A DNA stretch of 61,965 bases, the filler included. It is 16 parts of 16 records of this genome, joined end to end, with 100 filler letters (N's around TTAATTAATTAA, not from the genome) between each part and the next. Parts side by side here need not be neighbours in the genome. Positions count along the whole stretch, not along the records: positions 3,121 to 6,153 come from SRR15195285_17762; 15 more parts are not named here. One strand, given 5' to 3'. A model generated the notes under the pieces. That model searched no databases. It was not told the DNA's origin and saw only the letters and a program-made list of their open reading frames with translations. The stretch's first letter is position 1; each line of letters begins with the position of its first letter. Positions 3,570 through 61,965 of the stretch are shown in pieces. Position numbers and translations under genes: made by a program.

Positions 3570-5737
3570 TCAATGAACTCCTTCTGAAGTTTTTAGGAAC
3601 GCAGTGTCGACTAATTCCACACATTGCTCCTTGATAACACTCCTCACGAGCCGCTTGAAGTCTTCGAACGGACACGACAGCTCAGGCCCACTAGCACAGG
3701 TCGGCATGATTACGAAAACGCGGCTGGCCTACTCACGCGTGCACAAGCCCACACAATCATTCAGAGCGGATTCAAATCTTCTAGAGGACCAGCAGCGGCT
3801 ACAATACAGTCAAGCTCACTACCACCTACTACCAGAGAGCCATAGGTCGGTGAGGACAGCCACTGATGCGATACGATGCATGGCCACATTAGAATCATGT
3901 GCGCACCGGGTCAGCAGCCGTGAGTGGCGTTGCCTCGCGTTGCTGTCGGTAGGACTGGCTTACAAAGAACGCCTTCACATAGTATCGCTTCGTAGCACCG
4001 GCACCCGACGAGTAGAGAGAGAACATCAGGAAGCCACCAGGTGGACTCTGGTTAGGATTGAACCTAATGGGCGACGATATCGACACCCACACGCACAGTT
4101 GTCATGATTGTTGTTGCCCATGGTACTTGTGCGAGAGACTTTAGCAAGCTCACGATTCAGTGAGCCAGTTGAGCTTCAGCAGCTTCCGAAGCAAATAGAT
4201 GTTGATGTCATGGGCTGCATAGTAGACCAGCACATCCGTCGGATCGCTCCTGAGGCCCACGATTGGAGGCGCAGTAGGTCCGTCTACCATCTGCTGGAAG
4301 GATGCAGCGAGGTGCACCAGCATTTCCGACCCAGCGTTCTGAGCATTCCAATCGTCGTCGGCGATGTTCATGCTCTCTTCGTGCAACCGGAGCAACGTGC
4401 GCATCTACAAACCAGGCCCGTGCGTCGAACAACGTATCAACCACGACACTGCCGACTACTGCTACTAGGGACCACCAGATAGCTACTGTCAAACGACATC
4501 GCACGGCGGTCTGAATCTTACCTGGAGCTCTGTCATGCCTGGCACGAGACCTTGCCAATCCATGCCATTCAGATAAGCCAGCTGTATGTACCTGCGCCGT
4601 ATACTTTCAGTTGTGCATGTTTCAGGCTTGCAGCAACAGCAGCACATCTTGGCTCACTCAGAAAGTTTTGCAGCCAGTGAAAGAGGACCCTCGAAAACTT
4701 CCCAGTATGCCTTTCGCCCTTCCCACTCCGTTGGGACGTCCATGATCGTACAATTCCCTGGTGGAACGCTGACTGCACCGGAGCAGACCACGTCCTGGCA
4801 GCAGTCGAGCGCGTCGTTGATTTGGCGCACAGCTTCCTCTTGCTCAGTAGACAGCCGCGCAAAGTCGCCACCAACCTCCGCGGCTATGACAGCTTCGATG
4901 TCGCCGCTGACAGGGCACGCAGCAGTGCTAACGTTTCCCTGCAACTCAGCGGCGAAAAACACAAAGACCAGGGAGGGCGGGAGTTATAAGACAAGGACTG
5001 ATTCGTCCTACCGATAGAGCACCCATGGCACGGGCACTTACTTGATTCATGAGCTTCGCCATGTATTCTGGGTGCGCCAAATCCCAAGGGTCCACCGTGA
5101 AGCCTGCTTCTGGGTAGGCACCACGCATAAACGCCTCTGCCGTTTGAATGTCTCGATTCGTGTGATCCAGATCGGCGTACACCGTGAAGTTGTACGGTCG
5201 TGTCGGCAGGACCACCTCAGCCATATGCGCACCCATCAAAGCTATGACATGCTTGCCATGTGGCGTCAGCTCGGCAATCTTCGTGGCCCCCCACGCTTGC
5301 GGATCGGCAAACCACTTGCGGGCTGGATCCCGCGAGAAGATCGTCGCCGGTTGGTGCTCAACAGGAGCGAACGGTACTCGGATGCCGTGACGTGTTACTA
5401 TCAGGACACGTTCCTGGTGAAGCTCTGTGTCGTTTGGATCCGGCGGATCGATCCCGGAACACCACGACGAAATCGCTTGGTTCGAGCAGCCGGCCTGCCG
5501 CAGCTCGCGCTGATGCGAGCCGGCACACTCAGCGCACACGAAGACGCTTGCTCGGGCGTCTCCGCACGTCCGCTGCAGCATGGCGGTGCAGCCCGAGCCC
5601 GCGGGGTTGCGTTTTTTCGCCACCAGCAAGGAGCCCGCGCCCGCGCTGCCACGGCGCACTGTTGGCAGTGTCGGTGCCGCTGCCGCACCGAGCACCGTTG
5701 CAGCGCCCAGTGCTGCTAGCAGTAGCACGAAGATCAT
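3570..5737 (-). CDS. Secreted histidine acid phosphatase (AppA/glucose-1-phosphatase/phytase-like), multi-exon, with N-terminal 6-Cys module
   Basis: Signal peptide MIFVLLLAALGAA; catalytic RHGIRVP; 'ELTPHG'; 'VYADLDHTNRDIQTAEAF'; HD motif 'AAHDINIYLL'; 'QSPPGGFLMF'; C-terminal 'MPTCASGPELSCPFEDFKRLV..EQC'. Exons join through canonical GT-AG introns; stop at 3570-3572. Confidence 0.9.
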
Positions 5738-8792: not shown

Positions 8793-10474
8793 TTACATCT
8801 TCTTTGATGTGTTGGCAAGGACCGCACGAAGATAGTCCATGGCCTTCGACGACCTCTGCGTGTCGTCGTGTCCCAAATTCGGTAGTTGAATCAGGTGCAC
8901 TGGTTGTTCCTGCTTGCTCGCCCATGCTTTTGGGACGCCCGCAAGCGATGCAACAGTGCCGGTGTCGTCGCCATCAGCCGTAGTCACGATACACTCTGTC
9001 TTGGGATCGGGAGGTGGATATGGGCCATGATGTTGCAGCCGCCGCTTTACTTGAGACCACGCAGTGGCGTTCTCGTTTTCATTGCTGTTGTACGTGTAGT
9101 GGCATGGGGCCGAGAAATTTGCAGTGCCGTCAGCCTTGAGTGGGAAAGAGAAGTTGCTCGGCGTTGGACTGCCCGTGCCGTAGATCACGTGCGTCTCTAC
9201 TCCAACTGCATCGTAGACGCTGTAGTTTGCGGCGCCAGCGACTTGCTGTCCAACCCGCTCGTAGCCGGCGGCTTCAAACAGCTCTGGCAGCTGCGCGACG
9301 GTGTACTTGACCTTGTCGCCAGCAGTCGCCAGGATAGACTCCGGCGGGAGGATGGCACCCATCCACGAGAAGGACCCGTAGGATTGCTCAGTGGCAAACT
9401 CTGCATTCATGGCCCATGGGATTGGCGGACCACCTCCTTCGCTGCTCTCTTGAAGCTGGTTGAGCACAGTCTCGGCCGTTCCACCGAAGACGCCAGAGAG
9501 AGAGACAAAAGACGCGATATACTGCTCGCGCCAGGCGAGAGACACGTGCCGCTGGAGGAAGAGGGCGAAGACTGGTGAGCCGAGAGAGAAGCCAATCGCG
9601 GTCACCTTCTTGTTGGTCGAGGTAGCATTGTGGCTCATCTCCTCGATGAAGGCCTGCAGATGCTCGAAGTACCCGCCGGGACTCATCCAGTTTTTGGGAC
9701 CGAGGCGCCAGTCGTACGGCAAGGTTTGAAAATCCCTGTACCTCTGATACCCCATTGCTTGCAGGTTCTTGCACACGCACCCGAAGCTTGTGCGGTTACC
9801 CGTAAACATTGCCTTTGCGGGATCGGGATCCACGTCACACTGGCTCTCGAGAGTCATGTTGACACGGATGTCCACGCCCGGCGGATACGAGTACAGGTCG
9901 GTAGTGGGATCATAGATGAGCGATGCGTCGTCGAAGTAGCAGTCAGAATACAGTGGAAGTGCCATCTTCGGGCTTGGAGGGAAGAACTCCACCCAGTCTT
10001 CGTTGCGCTTGCACACGAGATGCTTCTGCTTCCGGTTCACCATCTTCCAGTCCATAAAAGAACCGCTCAACGGCGGGATCAGAATGACCGGCGGACGATC
10101 GTCCAAATGCACGGCGCCTGGCGATGGTGGCTTGCACACAGTCTCGTGGAAGCCGCCCGACTCGCAGAACTCCTGCTCCTCACCGACCGTACAGTTTGCG
10201 GTGGTACCGGGCCCGACGGACGCCGCGTGCTGCTTGATGCAGTCGAAGCACGCGGTTGCGTTGGATGGATCACTGCGGCATCACCAGCGGCAAGCACGCA
10301 AGCACGGAGTGTCACGTGGAAGCATTGACAAGAAAACATCTGCGACACAGCAGCTCACCAGATGTGGTACAGCGCGCGGAAGCAGTTCATGTTGCCTCCC
10401 CCATGGTGCTGGGCTGGCACGAGGACCGACAGCCCGAGCACAGCAACCGCAATCATTTCAATCCGTCCGCGCAT
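8793..10474 (-). CDS. Secreted LCAT / group XV phospholipase A2-like lipase with N-terminal 6-Cys module
   Basis: 'PVILIPPLSGS', 'LPYDWRL', nucleophile elbow GFSLG, 'FVSLSGVFGG', 'VIYGTG..TP', 'DGDDT', C-terminal His 'LGHDD'. Exon 1 (ATG 10474 or 10456, signal peptide) joins in frame across intron 10273-10358 (GTGAG...GCAG). Confidence 0.9.
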
Positions 10475-10880
10475 GAGCGAACGACTCGCTCTTCGATCTC
10501 GACCGCCCAGCAGCGCTCGCGAATTCCACGTGACGCCACGACTGAACTCGTACCCAAAGGCTCCTCGTCGCCCCACCAGCGACCACGCCGTACCGTACCA
10601 CCGCCACCCAGTGACCCCCACTGCCCTCCGTCCCCAGCGCTGCNNNNNNNNNNNNNNNNNNNNNNNNNNNNNNNNNNNNNNNNNNNNTTAATTAATTAAN
10701 NNNNNNNNNNNNNNNNNNNNNNNNNNNNNNNNNNNNNNNNNNNCTCCTCCTCCTCCTCCTCCTCCTCCTCCGCACTCTGCACTCTGACGGCGGTGGTGCC
10801 TGCCCCATTGACAACTAAATCTCTTCTTAAAATATCACACAGGGGGGTTTCTGATCTGCCCATTTAGCCTGTATTTATGC

Positions 10881-10920
10881 CAGATTTGATGGAAACGTTC
10901 CAGATTTGATGGAAACGTTG
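10881..10920 (+). repeat. 20-bp tandem duplication
   Basis: cagatttgatggaaacgtt(c/g) twice in a row, in probable intron sequence. Confidence 0.85.
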
Positions 10921-10931
10921 CTTCTGATCAG

Positions 10932-11749
10932 GTACCATTCGAGATATTTGTGCTGCTCATGATATTTGTGGCCCTGGCAGTAGATGGTGCGCATCAAAAT
11001 TTATTGATTGTTCTACGGCCAAGGGTGCATCCAACTGAAAGGAGCGTGTTGTGGTATGGTAGCTGTGTTTGACCTGCGCCACCAACCCAAGCTCGACCTA
11101 TATGTCGGTTTCTTCGTTCGACAGAATCTGATCCGATTCATGGTTTGGATTCGCGCTCTAAAGACCCTGCGTCCTATCACCGACTACGCACTCCACGTAC
11201 TGCTGCTCATCGGGATATTTTCCGAGGCGTACCTTTGGCTCCGCAACACAGTCAAAGTTGACTCGAGAGCGAGTCGACTCGATGTTTATCGGGTACCACC
11301 TCTTGTCGGTGCGTATGCAGCGCTCAACCGTCTGATCAGCATGTTTCGGCATCTCCGTACCGCACGCAGTGCTGCGATTGCGCAGCCAATGAATCCATTG
11401 AACTGGTTGTGCAGGTATGGCCCGCGGGCTGGCATTTTGCTGTGCTACCGAGTATGCCATCACGCAGACGAATATGCAGGCATTCGATGATGCGTATTAT
11501 TACGAGGACACCACAACAGCTAGTCTGCTGCGAGCCGGCAGCGTCATCGCTGTGCGTACCTTGTGGGGGGCTCTGCGGGTGTGGCGCGGTAGCTGCTTAG
11601 GTGTGATGCATGGCGCACCGCGGTCTGATGCTATCTTGCACCCCCCGTATAATCCTGAGATGAAGCTGGCGAGCGAAGCGTTCGTGAAGCTGAGAACCCG
11701 AGCCCCTCGTGTCACCTTGGGCCATGGCGGTGTTGCGCATGTGATCTGA
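10932..11749 (+). CDS. Hypothetical membrane protein, 3' exons (partial)
   Basis: Hydrophobic segments 'VPFEIFVLLMIFVALAV' and 'YALHVLLLIGIFSEAYLWL' between plausible AG/GT boundaries; stop at 11749, convergent with the next gene. No family recognised. Confidence 0.4.
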
Positions 11750-11824
11750 GGACTTTCTAGAGCTGGAAAAATTGTGAAACCGAAAAACGAACATGTTACT
11801 AGTACTATCAGTTCTTCTCTCGCT

Positions 11825-13759
11825 TTAATTATCCGCCTCAAGGCCTGGCTGGACAGTGAGAAACACACCAGCGCGTGGTGCCAGCTCCAATGCTGCGAGG
11901 CTGTCCAACTTGGTGCCGTTCTGTACCTGCAAAATTTCGGGCGCCTCGATCGACAGCGGATGTGAAGTCGTGGTAGCGTTCCAGCCCCGGATTTTCGATG
12001 CAATCGTTTTCAGGTCCTGTGAGCAGCGGGACGTTAGACTTGTCTCTGGCGCGGGCCTGTGTTTGTCTTGGCAATGTATCTAGAGAAATGGAAACCAGTG
12101 CATTTTCGTACCAGCGTCAGTGAAACCGTCACGGCTGCCTCCGCCCAGCTTGCCACTGCAATGATCAGCTGTCCAGCTGTGCTGTGGCTTGGCTGCACGA
12201 GGAAAGCAGTAGCCTTGACGTCCGTCACGCTGCTGCTGACCACAGCATGCCAGTCATGCTGATCGGCAAACCAGCCAAGCATCTCAGTACCATTTGCCGA
12301 CAAGCCGGACGCATCAATCCAAGCCCACAACGCCTTGTTTTGCGCAGCACTACTATATGGCGGTCGACCCCACATCCCAAAAACCATCCCTGAGGGGTCA
12401 CACATAGGGTCACCGATTTTTCCATAGCCACCTGGGTTAGTGATCTATAAACACCAAGAATGCACAAATATTTGGACGTTCCTACCGCGATGCACGTTGG
12501 GATGAGTCAGCATGTCATTGAAGACGCCAAACTGCAAGCCAGACGTAGCGAGCAGCATCCATGTCGCGTCGCCGCAAGAGCCAGACTGACGATCGCTGCA
12601 TGCCGAGGTACCGCCGTCATCAAATCCCTCCCCGAACATTACCGAGTCCATGAGAGACATATGCTGCGCGTACTCAAGCACGTCAATCTCTCCGCCACCT
12701 GAAGACCAACGGTTGCCACAATGTAGATCAAGCATGCCCCCCGACTTGTCGCTGTCGCCGCGACCGGTAGAGACGGCACGTGATGCGCGGAGCATCGTAT
12801 GCGCGTCATACGCCACTCCATCTACACGCAGAGTGCAACCAAACGAAACAAACGAAGCAACAAAGAAACTCTGGTCAGAGATCGCTCGCATTATTTGCGG
12901 CGAGTGTTATCCGATATCAAATAGGACGATCAATGGTCTCTCTAAGACACTGACAGAGGGAGGGACAAACGACTGTGCATCGCGACCCTGACTAACCGAG
13001 GTAGATGCCATCGATATCGAGCTCCTCCGTGGCAAGCACTAGGAGACGAGACCAGAAGTTTGCGAGTCTCGAATTCGCGCGAGTCGTAAATGACACGTCC
13101 ATATCGCATCCCTCGCAAATCGGCGATTCAGTTGGCTTTGACAGTGGTGTCGTCCAGTCAGATGAGAACAATGCAGTCGCTGCGTGCTCGCTAAACCAGT
13201 GGTGTGGTCCGAATGTCGTCACCAGATCCTCGGTCGGGCCGTTGTCCTCTATCGATCCCCACAATGTTGCTGACGTCTCTAGTTCTGAACCCGTTGGCGG
13301 AGGCGTTGGTGGTGGTATTGGGTCTACGTATGCTGGATGCGACATGAGCTCCCCGTACATGGCAAAGAACGCCCAGAGCTCGGGAGTCACAAAAGAGAGC
13401 GAGCCTGACGAGTAATACGATTTGACCTTTGAGTTGCCACGGTGCATCCTCTCAGCAAACGACTTCGCGGCTGCGTTTGCGACAGGATCCAGCGGATATA
13501 TTATCCATGGATTATAATCGTTGCCTTGGTGAACGTTTGCGATGTTGATTCCGTCAGAGAGCAGCGTTTCTGGCGGTACAATCTGCGCCTCGATCTGGTA
13601 GTAGCGCTGTTTTTGGAAGTGCACGGCACTCTGCGCGGGCTTATTTGGGGTCACTAAAACGTCGAAGTGTAACAATGCTGGATCACCAACTTTTAGCCTG
13701 AGTGGTCCAGTGAACGCCTCCAGGACACAGTCGCTGCTGCTGCTGCTGCTGCTGCTGCT
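11825..13759 (-). CDS. DUF6067-family putative glycoside hydrolase, multi-exon (5' partial)
   Basis: 'LHFDVLVTPNKP', 'NVHQGNDYNPWIIYP', 'KVKSYY', 'PELWA', 'SRLANFW..IDGIYL|DGVAYD', 'LDLHCGN', 'DSVMFGEGFD', 'SGLQFG..DML', 'GMVFGM', 'MLGWF', 'IAVASW' follow the bacterial DUF6067 pattern. Last exon ends '..GLEADN*' at 11825. Confidence 0.8.
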
Positions 13760-38087: not shown

Positions 38088-38189
38088 NNNNNNNNNNNNN
38101 NNNNNNNNNNNNNNNNNNNNNNNNNNNNNNNTTAATTAATTAANNNNNNNNNNNNNNNNNNNNNNNNNNNNNNNNNNNNNNNNNNNNGC

Positions 38190-40890
38190 ACGGCGTGCAC
38201 TGAGTGTGCTGAAGGCTTCTTTGTCGACGAACCGTGCAGTGCAACAAGTGACACGGTCTGCACTCCTTGCACCCCAGTCGAGAATAGCATCGGTTCCGAC
38301 ACTCCTGGTGTCACCACAGATGATATTCTGCTGACATGTACCTCTGCATCGTCATCACGGCTCGATCCGAACCAGGCAACAGTGTGCCTCAGCTCCTTCG
38401 TGAAGGTAGAAGCTGCTGATGACACCACCGCTGACGTATGCGCGTGTGCAGGAAACCAGCACCCGGAAAGTCTGGACCAGGTCGCCATATGTGACCTCGA
38501 TATTTCCACAGATGGCTCCGCCGTCTGCCCATTCGGCTGCGAAGAGGGCGATGAAGCAGGACCTGAGTGCAGCATGACCACTGATGGCTGCCCTGCTGGT
38601 TGCACTACCGTTCCAGAGTCTACCATCGAATGTGCGTTCGCGGACGGCACCACAGGTTGTCCCACAGGCTGTACGGAAGATCTTTCAACTGCAGGTAGTG
38701 AGACGTGCACAGGCGGCGCCATCCATACCCCGGAGTCTTGCGAAGGCGAGTCTGATCGAGTACCGACGTGCACTGGTCAATCGACGCAGCAGACGATCTG
38801 CGTTGACAACGTGTGCACATGCAATGGCGCCGATGGTTCTTCCTATGGCACTGCTGCTACCGCAGCCGATAACTGCACTGTACACGACGCCAACATATGC
38901 AACGCCTGCGAAAGTCTCAATGGTTGGCGTTGCACGAACGACGAATGCGGTCCTGACGACAGCGATCGTGGCTGCGAACCTTCGTGTGTGTGCGAATCAG
39001 GTGGCATCCCTACCACTTCATGCTCCAGGTCAGACATTGATTCGTGCGCGTCTTGCGACGACTCAGACCCGAACGATAACATTCTGGAAAGGTGGCTTGA
39101 AACCGTCGCGGGCACGGACGAAGTAACGTGCTCAGCCTGCTCAAACGACCTCGTGTGCGCCCCTGGACAAGGGTTCAGTGCGTGCACAGAGACGGCAGAT
39201 GCTGCATGCAGTGCTTGTGCTGACGGACAGGCGTTCCAGGCTGAAGCCGACAGCACTGCTGCATGCACGGCGTGCGGAGATGAGTGCCCTGTGGGTACGT
39301 ACTTGTCTTCGCCATGCGTGGCGGAGGCCGATCGAGTTTGCACCAACTGCACTCTCCCAGAGAATGCACAGCTTGCGGACGGGGTCACGTATACATGTGT
39401 GGGTAACGAGACGGCAGTCGCGTCTGCCGAATTCCCGGAGCAGTCACTCACTCTTACGGGAGGGGTAGAAGTTGCCGGAGGCGACGGAACGTCAGCGCGC
39501 GCTGCATTCGAAGAGAGCTTCAAGACCGATCTGGCCACTAAGCTCGCAGACCTCGGTCTTGACGTGGATCCGAAGTACATCCAGATCACCGGTGTGGTCT
39601 TGGGATCGATCCGCGTTGAGTACATCATCCTGGCCCCGATCGCAAGCTTCGAGAACGCAACGGCGGCTCTGACATCGATCGCCGAGCAGGCGGCGGCAGG
39701 TACACTTGGTTCCATCGGTGGCACCAGTGCCGCGAGCGCCCAAGATCCAGTAGTGGAACCAGACATGAGCTCGGTGCCGTCGCCATGCAAGAAGGGTTTT
39801 TCGCTCGTGAGCGGCGTCTGCACCTCGATGCTGTGCGGCGAGGACGAGAGGGTGCTTGACAACGAGGTGCGAGGCGAAAACGCAGAGAAAGTCTCGCTCG
39901 CAATGCTGTTTACATTTGTGCCTGCGTATGTGTGTTTGCCGCAGTGCGTTCCGTGTGACGACTCAGTGCGCGAATTCCATGCACCCGGGGCTTTGCAAGG
40001 TTTCAACGACACGCAGTGTACACCCGCCTGCGTAAGTGCCTCGTTCTCTTCTGCGCCGCTTATTTGGCGATTAAATGTTGATAGAGTCGTGGTGGCTTGC
40101 GCTGGTACTTGCAGGCCGTGGTTTTACACGACAATGGCGTCATGGGTGACTGCGACTCCATCCTGAAGGTTGGATCGTCTTGCACCCTCGGGTGTCAAGA
40201 GGGATTTGAATTCGTGGACAGGATGAAACGTGAGACTCGAACAGCCATCAACGCAGGCTGTAACGCGCGACTGCGCGTACAAGAGAGGCACATTGAGCGA
40301 TTCAGTTTCGCAGAGACTCATTTGTCTCCTGTATGTGTCGAATATCGTAGGCACTGGACCTGCTGGTCTTGGCGCCCGAATCAAGGTTCCGCGCCATCCA
40401 TATTGCAGGGAAAGCAGGGAGGAGGAGTTCATGAGCGAGCTGCAGGTGGACGTAGAATGCGTGGAGGAGGCGTCACTGCTGGGCGTCTTCATTATCCTCG
40501 TCGTAATGGTGCTCATTCCAGTACGTGCCCCCCGCCCCCGCCCCCGCCTCGGCGCCCTGTGGCTTGCCTGCAGTCACGCGAATCCTACTGCCATCATGTG
40601 ACATGGATGGAGCTGCAGCAAAGGATCCTAGAGCCACGTGCAGCCGTCTTGCTTACTGCGTTCGTGCTGTGCTGTGTGCGCAGACTGCGATAGCGGCAGC
40701 CAAGTACTTCCGGCAGTTCGCGGACTACAAGAAAAAGGTCGCGCGCGGCTACAAGTGGGACGGGAAAGGCAACGCCATCGCACCTGCCGGTGAGCAGGAT
40801 GTCATGGACGTCGAAAGTACAGCGGGGTCCATGGAAGAAACCAGTAACCCTGTTGCTGAGGGTGCCGACGAGTACGAGATGGAGACATGA
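38190..40890 (+). CDS. Type I membrane protein with TNFR-like Cys repeats and SEA-like domain, multi-exon (5' partial)
   Basis: 'CTECAEGFFVDEPCSATSDTVC', 'CPVGTYLSSPCVAEADRVC'; 'AFEESFKTDLA..IQITGVVLGSIRVEY'; TM 'LLGVFIILVVMVLIP|TAIAAA'; acidic cytosolic tail ending at 40890. Confidence 0.8.
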
Positions 40891-55713: not shown

Positions 55714-58169
55714 AAGCAGGCAGAGTACATGGCTGATGTGTTTGATGCAGCACGCACCTCAGGAGTGATGGACAGAGTGTTTTGGTACACCATCAATCCA
55801 CCGTGGGGCAACGATGGCATGAGCTTGACGAAATATGAGGTTCCAACCTCTGGTTACCATGCATATCAGACGTATACTTCGCAATATCCAACTTGGAAGA
55901 CTGACGATGACGACACAGGCGCATGTACTCTCAGGCTGGCGGAGTTGTGCCCACAGCACTTTCCCACATCTGCCTGCGAACTGTGCGCAGGAACTCGCCA
56001 ACATCCTCTTCGCATCGCTGGATGTAGCCATGCTGATATAGTCAAGTGGTGCTCAGTCGCAAGCAGCGTTCGGCTCGACCACCCACGTATTTTCTTCACT
56101 GCAGAGATCATTGCTGCGACCCGAGCGAATATTGCTGCCCATGCCGATTTGGCCGCTGTGTATCAGACGCTCAAATCACGCGCGATGTGGGACAGCGTTG
56201 GTGGAGTTTCGTGGAATGTGCAAGACCATGCATCAATGATCGCCTTGACATATTTGATCGAGACCGACGCATCCACAAAGGCAACGATGTTCACCAAGCT
56301 GCTGGCTGGCATGGATTCGCTCCCAGCCGACACGACCGACGAGTGGACAACCGGTCTGACTGCTTGGGCGATGGCAGTGATGTACGATGTCACCTACAAC
56401 GAGTTGACTGCTGCTCAGCGAACCAAATATGCAGCAGATATTGTTGGCATCGCTGATCGGGTGTATTCGTATTATCGTCACGGCGACTACAACAACCATG
56501 TTTATTGTGAATATGGTCCGTTGATCTATCCAGGGTTGGCTCTCGCTGGCGACGGATTGCAAGACGAAAAGGCCGAAAAATACCTGAATTTTACGTCGGA
56601 CTTTTTGACGAACCATGCAGCTAAGACGTTTGCACAAGTCGGTGAGACAGACGGTGGATGGCCGGAGGGGCGAAGTTATCATGCGCTGTTTATTCACTGG
56701 GCTACTCAGCAGCTGTGGGCTTGGAAGATTGCAACCAATATCGACCTTTTTCCAAATGCAACAGGCCTTCGGGGGGATGCCACCTGGATGACACACACGA
56801 GTTTGCCACATGACAACCAGCCTGTGGCTGTTGCAGACATCAACACAAGTCCAGACACGCCTAAGATTAATGGCTGGGACGAAACTTTCTATTATCTTGG
56901 GATCTTGGCTAGGGAGTACCAAGATGGTATTTCGCAGTACGCATCCAACGCGTCTGGCTTTGGACAGTACGAGTTCAGGCTCTGGCCATACATTATCTCA
57001 CACGATCCCACCTTACCACCACAACTGCCGTCCACCCTACCCACTGCAGCACTTTTTGAAGGCATCGGCTGGGCACCAATGCGAAGCGATTGGAGCAGTG
57101 ATGCAACTTTTGGTATGTTCGTTTGTGGCCGGTACTTCGCGGGTCATCAGCACCATGATCAAAACCAGTTCATCATACATAAGAAAGGCACCCTTGCGAT
57201 CGACGCGGGTGAGTACGGGGCACGGGCGACAGAATGCCACAACACCATTCGAATCGGTGGCAACCAACGGATGGACGGGATGCCAAATGGAAACGACCCG
57301 ATGCGATTTGTTGGCGATCCAAAAATCGATCCTCCAGACGGTCAGTGCTACACAGGATCAATTCTGGCATATCAGCATGCTCCAGAACAGGGGTGGACAT
57401 ATGTGGCAGGAAACGCGACGACTGCATACGACGCATCAAAGGTGTCCGAGTTCACTCGTCAGTTTGTGTATTTACGACCGGACCTTTTTATCATCTACGA
57501 CCGAACGGCAACTCTCAGTCCTCAACAGCGAGAATGGATGCTTCATTCACTTGAGCCAGCTTCGCTCAATGCGTTCCAGCAAGAAGTGACAATAACGAAT
57601 GGCAACGGTACTCTGTGGGCAAAAATGCTGCATCCAACTGGTGAGTTGCTGCTGACGCTTTTAGCTATTCGAAAGGTGTTCCTACGATATTGACATTGGT
57701 TTGCCAAGTGTGCACCGCCCCATTTCGACTAAGCAGCCGACGTGTGTAAGTAGATGTGGAGTTGACCCAGTACCAAATGACTGCGGACCACGATCCTCCG
57801 CACGGTTACGACCAGCAGCACCCAAGAAATGACAACTACATCAAATTTGCCCCTTCTTCGTCGCCGGCTGGACGACAAGACTTCGTATGTCACTGATAAT
57901 TTTACGTCTGCCTCGTCGTCATTGTTCTCCATCCCGACACTTGCGTGTTTGCGCAGGTCACTGTTCTGTACGCCGCCGATGCAAATTCTCCGCAAATCGC
58001 TTCGGCAACGTTGACATCAACGCCTGGTGCTGGAGGTAATTGGTATGGTGTCATGGTGTTGCTCAGTGGGAACACGTACGAAGTATCGTTTGCTCCGGCA
58101 GGCGATGTGCAAGGGACTGTGCGCATCAACGGGCGCGAGTCTACTCTACCGACTAGTATTGTCCGCTAA
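55714..58169 (+). CDS. Multidomain protein: end of GH-A-like barrel - KTDD linker - 6-Cys module - heparinase II/III-like polysaccharide lyase (5' partial, multi-exon)
   Basis: 'QAEYM..VFWY..GYHAY'; 'HPRIFFT', 'YNNH', 'GGWPEGRSYH', 'MRSDWSSDATF', 'GHQHHDQNQFII..LAIDAG', 'TECHNTI', 'FTRQFVYLRPDLFIIYDR'; final exon ends 'LPTSIVR*' at 58169. Confidence 0.85.
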
Positions 58170-59594: not shown

Positions 59595-61838
59595 TCATCG
59601 CAACTTTGCCACGAACACCGTGTAGCTGTTTGGGGGCACGAGCACCGCCTTGCCACTCACAGCGCCCACTTCCACCCTCTTTGGCGCGATCAGCTGCGGT
59701 TGACTTGGGGTATTGGCCCCGGTGAGATCCGGATAGCTCATCGACGTCACCTCCATCGGCGTGGACAAGCCACTCCCAAAATCTATCGTCACGTTCAGAG
59801 CTATTGGCTTATCCCACGCAACGCGTGCCACGACGGTCTTCCTGTCCTCAGAGATTTGCGCGGAGTAGAGCCCGGGCTCCAGACCAAACGGGCACACGTG
59901 ACCGACGCCTCTTGCGGTGTCGTGCTGCGTGAAGTTGAGAGCAAGCGGCTGCATTGTGTCTTTGACCATAGCGTGGACGTACCCCGGTGGCTGCAGCCAA
60001 GTGACATTTGGCAGAAAGCTGCAGCGCAGGTCCAGATTCAGGCCATCAGATTGTCAGGCACATCATAAAAACGCAACGTGGAATGACAACACGAAAGCCG
60101 ACTCACAACGCAAGCCCCTGGTCGTTGAGTCCGCCCTCGTTGAAGCCACTCCGCTCCATGCAGAACGACGCCGTTCGACCCTTGATTCGCTCTGCGAGTA
60201 GGTGGCGCGAGAAGTACATATTCAGATCCGCTGCCTCGTCCAGCATCCGCCTCACCTGTGCGCAACCACAGGCTACTCACAGGCCATTCGCACAATTTGT
60301 TGGTAGCCAGAAGACTAGTGCAGCAATCGGAGACACAAGAAGTACCGCCAGAGGAGGAGGCCGAGCAATCGCACCGTGTGGTCGCCACAGTTCGTCTCGC
60401 CGTTCAGAACACCCCAGTCCTCCATGTTTGTCATCTTCACCACTTTGTCAATCTCGCCAGCGCCACCCTCGGCCCCATTGTGGAGGTCCACCAGCAGCTG
60501 GTCCCCCAGGCCGAGTGCTTTGGCCTTAGCGGCATCTGCGGCGCTCATCCCAGCATTGTCGGGGAACAAATAGTAGAGCTTTCGGGGCACGCCAATCGCC
60601 TTGGCCCTCGCCTCCATCGCTTGCACTTGCTCGACAAAATCACTGTTATACTCTTCGTTACCGAGCTCGAAATAGCTGACGTTGTACGGCTCCGGGTGGC
60701 CGTCCGCGATCCTCTGCTTGCCGAGGCTGGTCGCACCACTGCCCCAGCAGTACTCAACGAGATCAGCCAGCATCCCCACGTCGTGGGGGTCGATGGTAAG
60801 CAGCGGCTCTGCACCGATGGCGTTGGCGAGATCCACCATCTCGAACAGCCCCCAGCCGCTCATGAGCCCGTGCCTCCAGATGCCATCGACAGCGCTCGGG
60901 CGCAGCCACGGTGGCCCACGCCAGCGCGTCCATGGCATAGGCCCGCTTGTGACGTACGACCCCCCAAACCTGATCATAGAGACGCCCATCTGCTGCAGTG
61001 CTGCAGCTGATGCCGCGCGCACTGGTAGCCTCTTGAATCTCCCCCATTCCCCTGCCATCAGAGACGCAAAGCCGATTTCCACGGTACCAGAGCCACTCAA
61101 CGATAGCGACAGCTGCCCACCACATGCGACACAGACGTGTGCCGTGAGGTCTGACATCTTCTCCCAGTCTCGTCCGAGGTAGCGGCCACTAGGCGGGCAT
61201 CCAATGCCCTGCTTCAGGACCTCAGAGTCGGTGATTCCGGCGCATGTCACGCTGGCGTTGGGAGTCAACGAGAAGGGCAATTTGCTCCAGTTCCCCGCGG
61301 GGATACTGACTGTCGCACTGGCCAGCGGTGGCGCACGCACACGGCTGCCTCGCGATTCTAGCGTTACCGTCACCTCTACTGCTTCCGCGGACCGCGCCAG
61401 TAGGTATCCATCGTATACCTTCCCAGCCTGGAAGGGCAGGCCCTCGTTCCCGAAGCCGCGGTTTGTGGCGCTCCCGGGTCCTGGACCGAGCACAAGCGCG
61501 CGGCCACCGGGCATGAGCGAGCTGCCGCTGACTTTCGCAGCGCGATCCAGGATCCATGCCTGCTGCGGTGGGTACGTCATGTTCGCCGTGGTATCGTTAA
61601 GCCGCGTTCCCCGGGCGAAGTTTCCTGCGTCCGGCACTGGTTCGAAGGCGTTCCCGTTGATAAGTTCCGCGGACAGGCCACGCGCCTGATGAGCGTAGCC
61701 AGCATCGCTGTGGCAACCCATGAAAAGGGGATTGATGCGGTGCAGCGGCGGGCGACGCGGGTCTATCTGCAGCGTGCACCCGGCCTGTGCGACCGGCATA
61801 CCCGGCACAGCGGCCAGGACAAGCACCAGCAGCACCAT
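59595..61838 (-). CDS. Secreted GH51 alpha-L-arabinofuranosidase-like protein, multi-exon
   Basis: Signal peptide MVLLVLVLAAVP; 'INPLFMG..GLSAELING', 'NRGFGNEG', 'IRFGGS', 'WTRWRGP..RP', 'LADLVEYCWG..RIADGHPEPY..FELGNEE', 'GETN'; C-terminal 'ANTP..P..VPPNSYTV'. Confidence 0.9.
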
Positions 61839-61965
61839 CGAGAGGACGTCGCAGCACCACCCCCGCACGCACTGCAGCCGACCACGCACCGCGGCGACCC
61901 CGCCACGGCGGCGAGCAATTGAAAATATGGTGCGATGAATCACCAGCCGCGCGCGATTCCTCATA

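Follow-up and report, generated by a model that had tools for sequence, protein, structure and literature searches.

A new family of portable six-cysteine modules with a predicted helical fold, carried by hydrolases and by array proteins

Several small domains provide points of comparison for the module described here. ShKT domains, about 40 residues long, mostly helical and with six cysteines, are found singly on secreted enzymes or in tandem in animals, plants and algae. Carbohydrate-binding modules and the dockerin/cohesin domains are also small, non-catalytic and attached through short linkers to enzymes that degrade polysaccharides and lipids, and their scaffolds display tandem arrays on proline-rich linkers. 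In plant aspartic proteases, a saposin-like insert serves sorting or membrane binding. The CHCH (twin Cx9C) proteins are mitochondrial and carry four cysteines.

The module resembles ShKT (PF01549) in its size, its six cysteines, its helices, its single or array use and its portable accessory role. Its cysteine spacing differs, however, from that of ShKT, and Pfam gave no match to ShK, up to an E-value of 10, in the modules, the whole carrier proteins or the array proteins P0098 and P0101. The predicted small helical bundle with three disulfides would bring it close to saposin-like proteins such as granulysin (1l9l). Two of its cysteine pairs, 7–8 residues apart on two predicted helices, could staple these helices as in the CHCH proteins, from which the module is distinguished by its six cysteines and its secretory context. 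The likeness to carbohydrate-binding modules and to the cellulosome would be one of function, by analogy; sequence and fold are unrelated. Unlike dockerin and cohesin, which form a complementary pair, one and the same module is found here on enzymes and in arrays.

The stretch analysed, hereafter the window, comes from an uncultured marine protist, has a length of 61,965 nucleotides, filler included, and consists of 16 short contigs separated by N linkers. The module is about 44 residues long and shows the spacing C-x7-C-x7..9-C-x2-C-x12..15-C-x8-C. A six-frame regex scan of the window found it at only three sites (Table 1). The original prediction had placed one module on three unrelated enzymes. 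Indeed, copies 1 and 3 translate exactly as it had written them and share 14 identities over 26 positions (BLASTP, E 7e-9). Furthermore, an independent HMM, for which 17 repeats taken from P0098 and P0101 but no window sequence were used, was scored on 1,921 frames, namely 1,920 from the window and one from the spliced copy 2. It recovered the three copies, copy 2 reaching 3e-7 when spliced, and the best frame beyond them had an E-value of 0.13. These sequence comparisons support the view that the three segments are homologous copies of one module. A chance or artefactual origin was ruled out by the E-values of the independent HMM and by the conservation in orthologues.

Table 1. Features of the three module-carrying genes, with positions counted along the window
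Protein	Feature	Position	Strand	Basis or remark
1	Start codon and hydrophobic, signal-peptide-like N-terminus	5675..5737	-	Read from sequence
1	Module copy 1, 44 aa	5459..5590	-	Translation, regex, independent HMM (E 2.6e-11)
1	RHGxRxP motif (putative histidine phosphatase domain)	5372..5392	-	22 residues past copy 1
2	LCAT-like gene, exon 1 with start codon (10456) and signal-peptide-like stretch	10359..10456	-	Conserved in ortholog L002
2	Putative intron inside copy 2, 86 nt, GTGAGC...CAG, phase 2	10273..10358	-	Comparison with L002
2	Rest of copy 2, 36 residues, running on into the LCAT domain	10164..10272	-	Independent HMM (E 1.7e-7, exon-2 frame)
2	LCAT/lysosomal-phospholipase-A2-type catalytic region	8796..10163	-	Pfam PF02450
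3	C-terminal end of the upstream glycoside hydrolase domain, cut by contig end	55714..55896	+	Full form in P0180
3	KTDDDD linker from glycoside hydrolase end to module	55897..55914	+	Like the linker in P0004 and P0180
3	Module copy 3, 43 aa	55924..56052	+	Translation, regex, independent HMM (E 9.4e-6)
3	Heparinase II/III-like/DUF4962 lyase region	56071..57693	+	Starts 6 residues past copy 3

In the three window copies and in all 21 modules that were aligned, the six cysteines are invariant, and so is the CxxC; the histidine position of C-x2-C-x3-H carries this residue in 12 of the 21 modules (Y in four, N in three, E and R in one each). Besides the cysteines, the conserved positions are two leucines, one of them at +4 of Cys1 (18/21), an A-[GHN] pair before Cys5 whose alanine is kept in 18 modules, and an aromatic residue preceding Cys6 (20/21); these positions have a core-like look. 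The remaining ones diverge strongly among the P0098-type, the P0101-type and the window copies, and therefore no conserved binding face is visible. N-x-S/T sequons are present in 11 of the 21 modules, seven of which share one loop column.

Copy 2 becomes visible only when 10384-10359 (minus strand), which encodes its first nine residues in exon 1, is joined to 10272-10164. Read without splicing, exon 1 meets a stop two codons on; the exon joint creates the codon of the second cysteine. The 86-nt intron, already put forward in the original prediction, has a counterpart in an ortholog on a metagenome contig, L002, whose identity to the query ORF is 91% over residues 1-105. There, site and phase of the intron are unchanged, its length is 102 nt instead of 86, exon 1 is conserved, and none of the six cysteines is lost from the spliced product. 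The putative intron is thus supported by comparison. The spliced joint was not seen in the contigs from four RNA runs, and one contig (X1, 10173-10580, depth 3.5) holds the intron unspliced. For L001, an ortholog at a greater distance, a search of the 2.3-kb contig did not reveal the first exon. A second in-frame ATG lies at 10474, upstream of the start codon of the LCAT-like gene.

The three carriers belong to unrelated enzyme families. In protein 1, which corresponds to P0179 in EukProt, copy 1 shares an open frame with the putative signal peptide and the start of the putative phosphatase; the frame of the first exon alone reaches an E-value of 0.0013 with Pfam His_Phos_2 (18.6 bits, cut-off 23.6). 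Protein 2 matches Pfam LCAT (PF02450) with an E-value of 9.6e-35 (121 bits, cut-off 21). The lyase region of protein 3 matches PF07940 (26.4 bits, cut-off 24), and heparinase II and oligo-alginate lyase chains of solved structure match a lyase-containing profile with E-values of 9e-14 to 2e-11, the lyase columns of that profile coming from P0004, a homologue 69% identical to protein 3. The full-length form of protein 3 is represented by P0180, in which PF07632 and PF11790 are followed by the module and then by the lyase. The original prediction placed each copy just N-terminal to a catalytic domain, after a signal peptide or a KTDD linker. In proteins 1 and 2 the module follows the putative signal peptide; in protein 3 it has an internal and not an N-terminal position, flanked by two catalytic domains and reached in P0180 after some 690 residues. 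Hydrophobic N-termini were read in proteins 1 and 2, P0180 and P0101. Both window hydrolases whose N-terminus lies on the contig carry the module and a third one carries it internally, a tiny sample. Two more hydrolase genes of the window, GH123-like and ASD1-like, run off their contigs.

The nearest homologues of the protein 3 lyase are of bacterial type. Those inspected have a signal peptide followed directly by the lyase, and the lyase of protein 3 begins where they begin after their signal peptide. The module was found in none of 170 other lyase-type homologues, many of them bacterial-type, in agreement with the expectation that this family normally lacks it. From these comparisons, the module is best explained as an addition to the enzymes and not as an intrinsic part of them. 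It also evolves faster than its catalytic neighbours while retaining every cysteine, as an accessory domain would. Identity to the window is 35/43 in the module and 473/515 in the neighbouring domain for P0180, 25/43 and 391/515 for P0004, and 38/45 and 62/66 for L002.

The module is not restricted to enzymes, and two proteins from other samples and other organisms carry it in arrays. P0101 consists of a signal-peptide-like N-terminus and ten charged modules on short linkers, with little else, and P0098 carries 9–10 modules on flexible proline-rich linkers; the two proteins are very different in composition. The module is thus met in three settings, namely behind a signal peptide, with a catalytic domain on either side, and in arrays of 9–10 copies, so that its presumed portability stands. 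By contrast, the idea that it is lineage-specific has become doubtful, because two array proteins of such different composition carry it. Other searches yielded few relatives. A word-index search with the module alone gave one candidate, a near-identical protein, and the same search with a six-module profile gave five matches among 4,561 candidates, P0180 being the sole new one. Queries of the ESM Atlas with copy 1 and P0101 returned no usable match, and a scan of a contig collection with P0098 produced 58 pattern matches and no relative. A candidate from viral contigs scanned with a two-copy alignment, the only one of 62 pattern matches to pass tblastn, was rejected: it is a chance word on a phage-like contig and lacks the cysteine frame.

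AlphaFold modelling of copy 1 (mean pLDDT 87.5) gives helices at 2-18, 20-29, 31-36 and 41-49, and the fold of the module is predicted to be a four-helix mini-bundle held by three disulfides. The same four-helix pattern is found in all ten repeats of the P0101 model, whose copies behave like beads on a string, since the linkers have a pLDDT below 50 and the pTM is 0.21. No significant match to the module was obtained in Pfam, in NCBIfam, or among PDB sequences and folds, in keeping with the original prediction, which could assign it to no named domain and had suggested this modelling. Foldseek returned no match in the PDB, and the fold search of BFVD returned a single one (E 4.2). Keyword searches of the literature found nothing on the module, a weak basis for calling it unpublished. 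Globally, the module is a new domain family, real and portable.

We tentatively favour, at somewhat less than an even chance, the reading that the three segments are one undescribed, self-folding domain of the secretory pathway with a non-catalytic role in binding or anchoring. Present on unrelated hydrolases, namely a putative histidine acid phosphatase, a lipase of the LCAT/LPLA2 type and a fusion of glycoside hydrolase and lyase, it would act in the manner of ShK-type domains or carbohydrate-binding modules and tether soluble digestive enzymes to a common ligand, which may be the cell coat, the matrix of the vacuole or a food particle. The arrays would then be multivalent scaffold or coat proteins. 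We infer that the module binds something, and what it might bind, while its reality, portability, predicted fold and secretory context come from the data themselves. The invisibility of a conserved binding face fits a mere spacer equally well. A more elaborate proposal, by analogy with the cellulosome, is that the module serves as a common docking or address system: digestive enzymes with one copy would assemble on ten-copy scaffolds, through contacts between modules or through a common receptor, and give a phagotrophic protist an organised enzyme coat, be it at its feeding surface or within its food vacuole. This single-domain eukaryotic counterpart of the cellulosome would be a long shot.

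Other functions have to be weighed against binding or anchoring. The module may be a passive structural element, a disulfide-stapled and protease-resistant spacer or cap with no specific ligand, which would give secreted proteins stability or distance. We regard this as unlikely, even though surface positions vary between subfamilies, cysteines and core-like residues alone being kept, the module changes faster than the adjacent domains, and the arrays on flexible linkers resemble stalk or coat proteins. Indeed, one would not look for a spacer in close contact with three different catalytic domains, from which linkers of about 6–25 residues separate the module, and small domains on enzymes usually bind something, which also counts against it. 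It is quite unlikely that the module is instead a sorting tag, as in the original prediction, through which a receptor would direct digestive enzymes to the food vacuole, the lysosome or an extrusome. A tag would suit the three carriers, which are lysosomal- or digestive-type hydrolases and two of which bear the module immediately behind the signal peptide, and it would suit the presence of the module on all window hydrolases with a visible N-terminus, very small numbers as these are. However, the module is deep inside P0180, its surface is poorly conserved, and an address label needs no arrays such as those of P0098 and P0101. That arrays of the P0101 type are cut into toxin-, pheromone- or defensin-like peptides with six cysteines, the enzyme copies being side products, seems highly improbable. 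The architecture of P0101 (signal peptide, ten charged modules, short linkers) is that of a possible precursor, and small helical three-disulfide peptides do exist as pheromones and toxins, which was counted in its favour; but the linkers inspected contain no dibasic or other repeated cleavage motif, and single copies are tightly fused to catalytic domains and conserved in orthologues.

A redox role is suggested by the sole recurring database signal: below the thresholds, the module resembles the CMD/AhpD proteins in their CxxC core. The module would be a stapled and trimmed offshoot of this helical core, with helices 1 and 4 stapled by four of the cysteines and with the CxxC as the reactive pair, active in thiol-disulfide exchange or as a redox switch. 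The CMD core does align with the motif C-x2-C-x3-H...L-[KR]-x-A-G-x-[ST]-x2-E, the C-x2-C-x3-H part of which opens a helix in both, and AhpD and the MA3736 disulfide reductase use their CxxC in catalysis (PMC3426412). Among four proteins tested with NCBIfam ahpD_dom (TIGR00778), one gave a match, copy 1 with an E-value of 7.9e-4, but its score of 18.9 bits falls below the curated cut-off of 27.8. Likewise, Pfam CMD (PF02627) was matched by two of six modules (best E 0.033), with 13.1-13.4 bits for copy 1 against a cut-off of 23, and by neither P0098 nor P0101 as whole proteins. A PDB profile search listed four CMD chains (E 0.24-0.62). Comparison with eight bacterial CMD domains by hhalign gave a P-value of 0.0034 over 24 columns, for a target picked after its match was seen; the aligned part covers 24 of 84 CMD positions, and the hhalign probability is 9.5%, or 6.9-8.3% when 21 or 17 modules are used. 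The 50 fold matches listed include no CMD/AhpD chain, which amounts to no exclusion. Compared with CMD/AhpD, the module has four extra invariant cysteines, a secretory context and about half the size. Furthermore, the histidine of the redox motif is kept in only 12 of 21 modules, and an extracellular setting favours structural disulfides. A redox module therefore appears very unlikely.

As it stands, the module is a new domain family without assigned function, which is useful but not startling. As the module is small, confidently predicted and easily expressed, its ligand could be found at the bench. What is known of uncultured marine heterotrophic protists comes almost entirely from fragmentary genomes. 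A module borne in common by a phosphatase, a phospholipase and an enzyme that degrades polysaccharides would point to proteins acting at a single site, and a profile of the module alone would provide a handle to the rest of this protein set in environmental data.

A six-cysteine module of about 44 residues occurs at three places in the window, on three different enzymes, as the original prediction had stated. The window itself consists of 16 short contigs of 3-6 kb each with N linkers between them (61,965 bases in total), has a G+C content of 55% and carries genes whose introns are of the spliceosomal type. A regular-expression scan of its six frames finds the spacing C-x7-C-x7..9-C-x2-C-x12..15-C-x8-C in a probable histidine phosphatase (protein 1), an LCAT/LPLA2-type protein (protein 2) and a glycoside hydrolase-heparinase-like lyase fusion (protein 3), and nowhere else. 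In copy 2, the second cysteine codon arises at a splice joint. Copies 1 and 3 align with each other (identities 14/26, E 7e-9).

In two of the three genes, a single uninterrupted frame runs from the signal peptide or linker through the module into the first part of the catalytic domain, and therefore the fusions are not artefacts of gene models; the EukProt protein P0179 is identical to the first-exon reading of protein 1. In proteins 1 and 3 no intron borders the module, and the sole intron sits within copy 2; the present structure of the three genes bears no sign of exon shuffling.

Positions of the module copies and of neighbouring features in the window
Feature	Position	Strand	Remarks
Module copy 1	5459-5590	minus	translates exactly as predicted
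Intron of copy 2	10273-10358		86 nt, GTGAGC...CAG, phase 2; copy 2 is read after its removal
GH123-like gene	10744-13759	minus	contig ends before N-terminus
Frame with TNFR/NGFR-type cysteine-rich repeat	38136-40163	plus	long frame; PF00020, E 9.6e-8; extracellular module distinct from the six-cysteine module
K-T-D-D linker of protein 3	55897-55914		single occurrence in six-frame translation of the window
Module copy 3	55924-56052	plus	translates exactly as predicted
Lyase part of protein 3	56071-57693	plus	closest homologues are of bacterial type (P0005-P0011, 55-58% identity)
Arabinofuranosidase ASD1-like gene	60318-61964	minus	contig ends before N-terminus

Further copies of the module were found in two array proteins from outside the window. 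An exhaustive search with a profile of 904 positions, whose alignment included the full-length protein 3 homologue P0004, gave 2,231 matches at E <=0.001; among the 150 listed, a set that single-module proteins had no chance of entering, P0098 (1,166 aa, 9 matched stretches) and P0101 (558 aa, 10 matched stretches) owe their match to the module alone. Each is a tandem array of the six-cysteine unit on linkers, which are proline-rich in P0098. For the strongest test of kinship, an independent profile, built from 17 repeats of these two proteins and no window sequence, was scored against 1,920 stop-to-stop window frames and the spliced copy 2. It recovers copy 1 (E 2.6e-11), copy 2 (1.7e-7 for the exon-2 frame, 3e-7 for the spliced form) and copy 3 (9.4e-6), the next-best frame being at E 0.13, and the three copies thus form one family that is also present elsewhere. 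Word-index, Atlas, metagenome and viral searches added only P0180 (an orthologue of protein 3) and two LCAT orthologues. The first module of the P0098 array (residues 128-207) is interrupted directly after A-G-C by roughly 30 extra residues (HMM positions 1-38, then 37-48). The insert resembles an intron left unspliced, a hint that P0098 comes from a eukaryote.

The intron of copy 2 recurs at the same site and phase, with a length of 102 nt instead of 86, in the orthologue on metagenome contig L002, which shares 91% identity with residues 1-105 of the query ORF, conserves exon 1 and retains all six cysteines in its spliced product. In a more distant orthologue (L001, 83%), the exon-2 part and the acceptor phase are the same; its first exon was looked for and not found. 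Contigs from four RNA-library runs span 9900-10580 without differences, and the spliced joint is absent from them. Contig X1 from a metatranscriptome run (10173-10580, depth 3.5) is unspliced, running from exon 1 through the entire intron into exon 2, and could be DNA or pre-mRNA. Oligo-dT libraries cover exon 2 only (9963-10234). Residues 1-9 of copy 2 contribute nothing to its profile score and are supported instead by the C...L...C match and the orthologue.

In an alignment of 21 modules, the six cysteines are invariant. Cys1 is followed by L in 18/21 modules, and a second L position is kept in 16/21; Cys5 is preceded by A (18/21), then G/H/N, and followed by T/S (20/21); F/Y/W precedes Cys6 in 20/21, and H lies four residues past CxxC in 12/21. 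The remaining positions differ strongly among the window copies, the P0098 type (neutral, T/S/A/N-rich) and the P0101 type (K/E/H-rich). Between orthologues, the module diverges faster than neighbouring domains, never at a cysteine, with identities to the window of 35/43 against 473/515 for P0180, 25/43 against 391/515 for P0004 and 38/45 against 62/66 for L002. N-glycosylation sequons in 11 of the 21 modules (seven at one loop column) and the hydrophobic N-terminal stretches of proteins 1 and 2, P0180 and P0101 place the module, in our reading of the sequences, in the secretory pathway.

The module appears to have been added to the enzymes. A word-index search with the lyase region of protein 3 gives 26 homologues at E <=0.001, and in the bacterial-type ones that were read, the lyase begins right after the signal peptide, at the same residues at which the window protein exits the module. 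Run over 180 proteins, the 21-module profile finds it in P0098, P0101 and P0177 (a near-identical member), in the P0004/P0178 and P0180 orthologues, in protein 1 (P0003/P0179) and in the window-module peptides P0001 and P0002, and in none of the 170 others, which agrees with the claim that the lyase family normally lacks it. In P0180, which has the complete architecture, the module is internal, since a signal peptide, PF07632, the PF11790 glycoside hydrolase core and a KTDDDD linker precede it and the lyase succeeds it.

K-T-D-D(-D-D) is a recurring inter-domain linker of this family (P0004, P0180). The lyase homologues (P0005-P0029) include P0019, named as Planctomycetes, and L005, from an uncultured-bacterium MAG, is 72% identical to P0006; the lyase kinship suggests gene transfer from bacteria and then fusion to the glycoside hydrolase and the module. 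Outside the window, a second KTDD-type linker at the C-terminus of P0004/P0178, the 69%-identical homologue, leads to a cysteine motif that we take to be trefoil (P-type) domain-like, after which another hydrolase-like region begins; the gene call here may be a merged one.

A Pfam scan of 121 window frames of at least 130 aa yields five hydrolase-type secretory genes. The module is present in both of those with their N-terminus on the contig and internal in a third; the GH123-like and ASD1-like genes run off their contigs.

As first proposed, no named domain fits the module. Pfam has no domain for it or for P0101, and for P0098 only a C-terminal DUF4397; NCBIfam gives nothing above cut-off, and a PDB profile search no match below E 0.036, its top rows being a spurious PETase tail. 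The CxxC core of CMD/AhpD is the one recurring signal, in TIGR00778 (E 7.9e-4, copy 1 only), in Pfam CMD (2/6 modules tested) and in four CMD chains of the PDB search (E 0.24-0.62). Compared with a profile of eight bacterial CMD domains (four genomes), the module reaches a probability of 9.5% (P 0.0034, 24 columns), or 6.9-8.3% with 21 or 17 modules. The motif C-x2-C-x3-H ... G-x-[ST]-x2-E aligns sensibly with the module, but its histidine is not conserved there and all curated cut-offs are missed, and therefore we grant resemblance, not membership.

The AlphaFold modelling advised at the outset, on a 7-row alignment (window copies and whole P0004, P0180, P0098 and P0101), predicts a unit of four helices (2-18, 20-29, 31-36 and 41-49 of a 52-residue construct) with a mean pLDDT of 87.5 and a pTM of 0.63. 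In a second model, of P0101 with P0098 as sole companion, the four-helix pattern recurs in 10/10 units. Its pLDDT is 75-86 in the in-module blocks and <50 in the linkers, with a pTM of 0.21, so the units would behave as beads on a string.

We favour, at somewhat short of even chances, a non-catalytic domain that would serve in binding or anchoring. A passive spacer ranks second and is unlikely. The sorting tag of the original prediction is less likely again, because the module also forms arrays (P0098, P0101) and lies internally. A redox role is kept as a minor and improbable rival since CxxC is catalytic in AhpD and in MA3736 (PMC3426412); that the arrays are a source of released peptides is the least probable of these readings, with a very slim chance.

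The original observation is thus borne out and reinforced: the module is a real, undescribed and portable helical domain with six cysteines, carried by secreted proteins, and represents a new family of a familiar kind.
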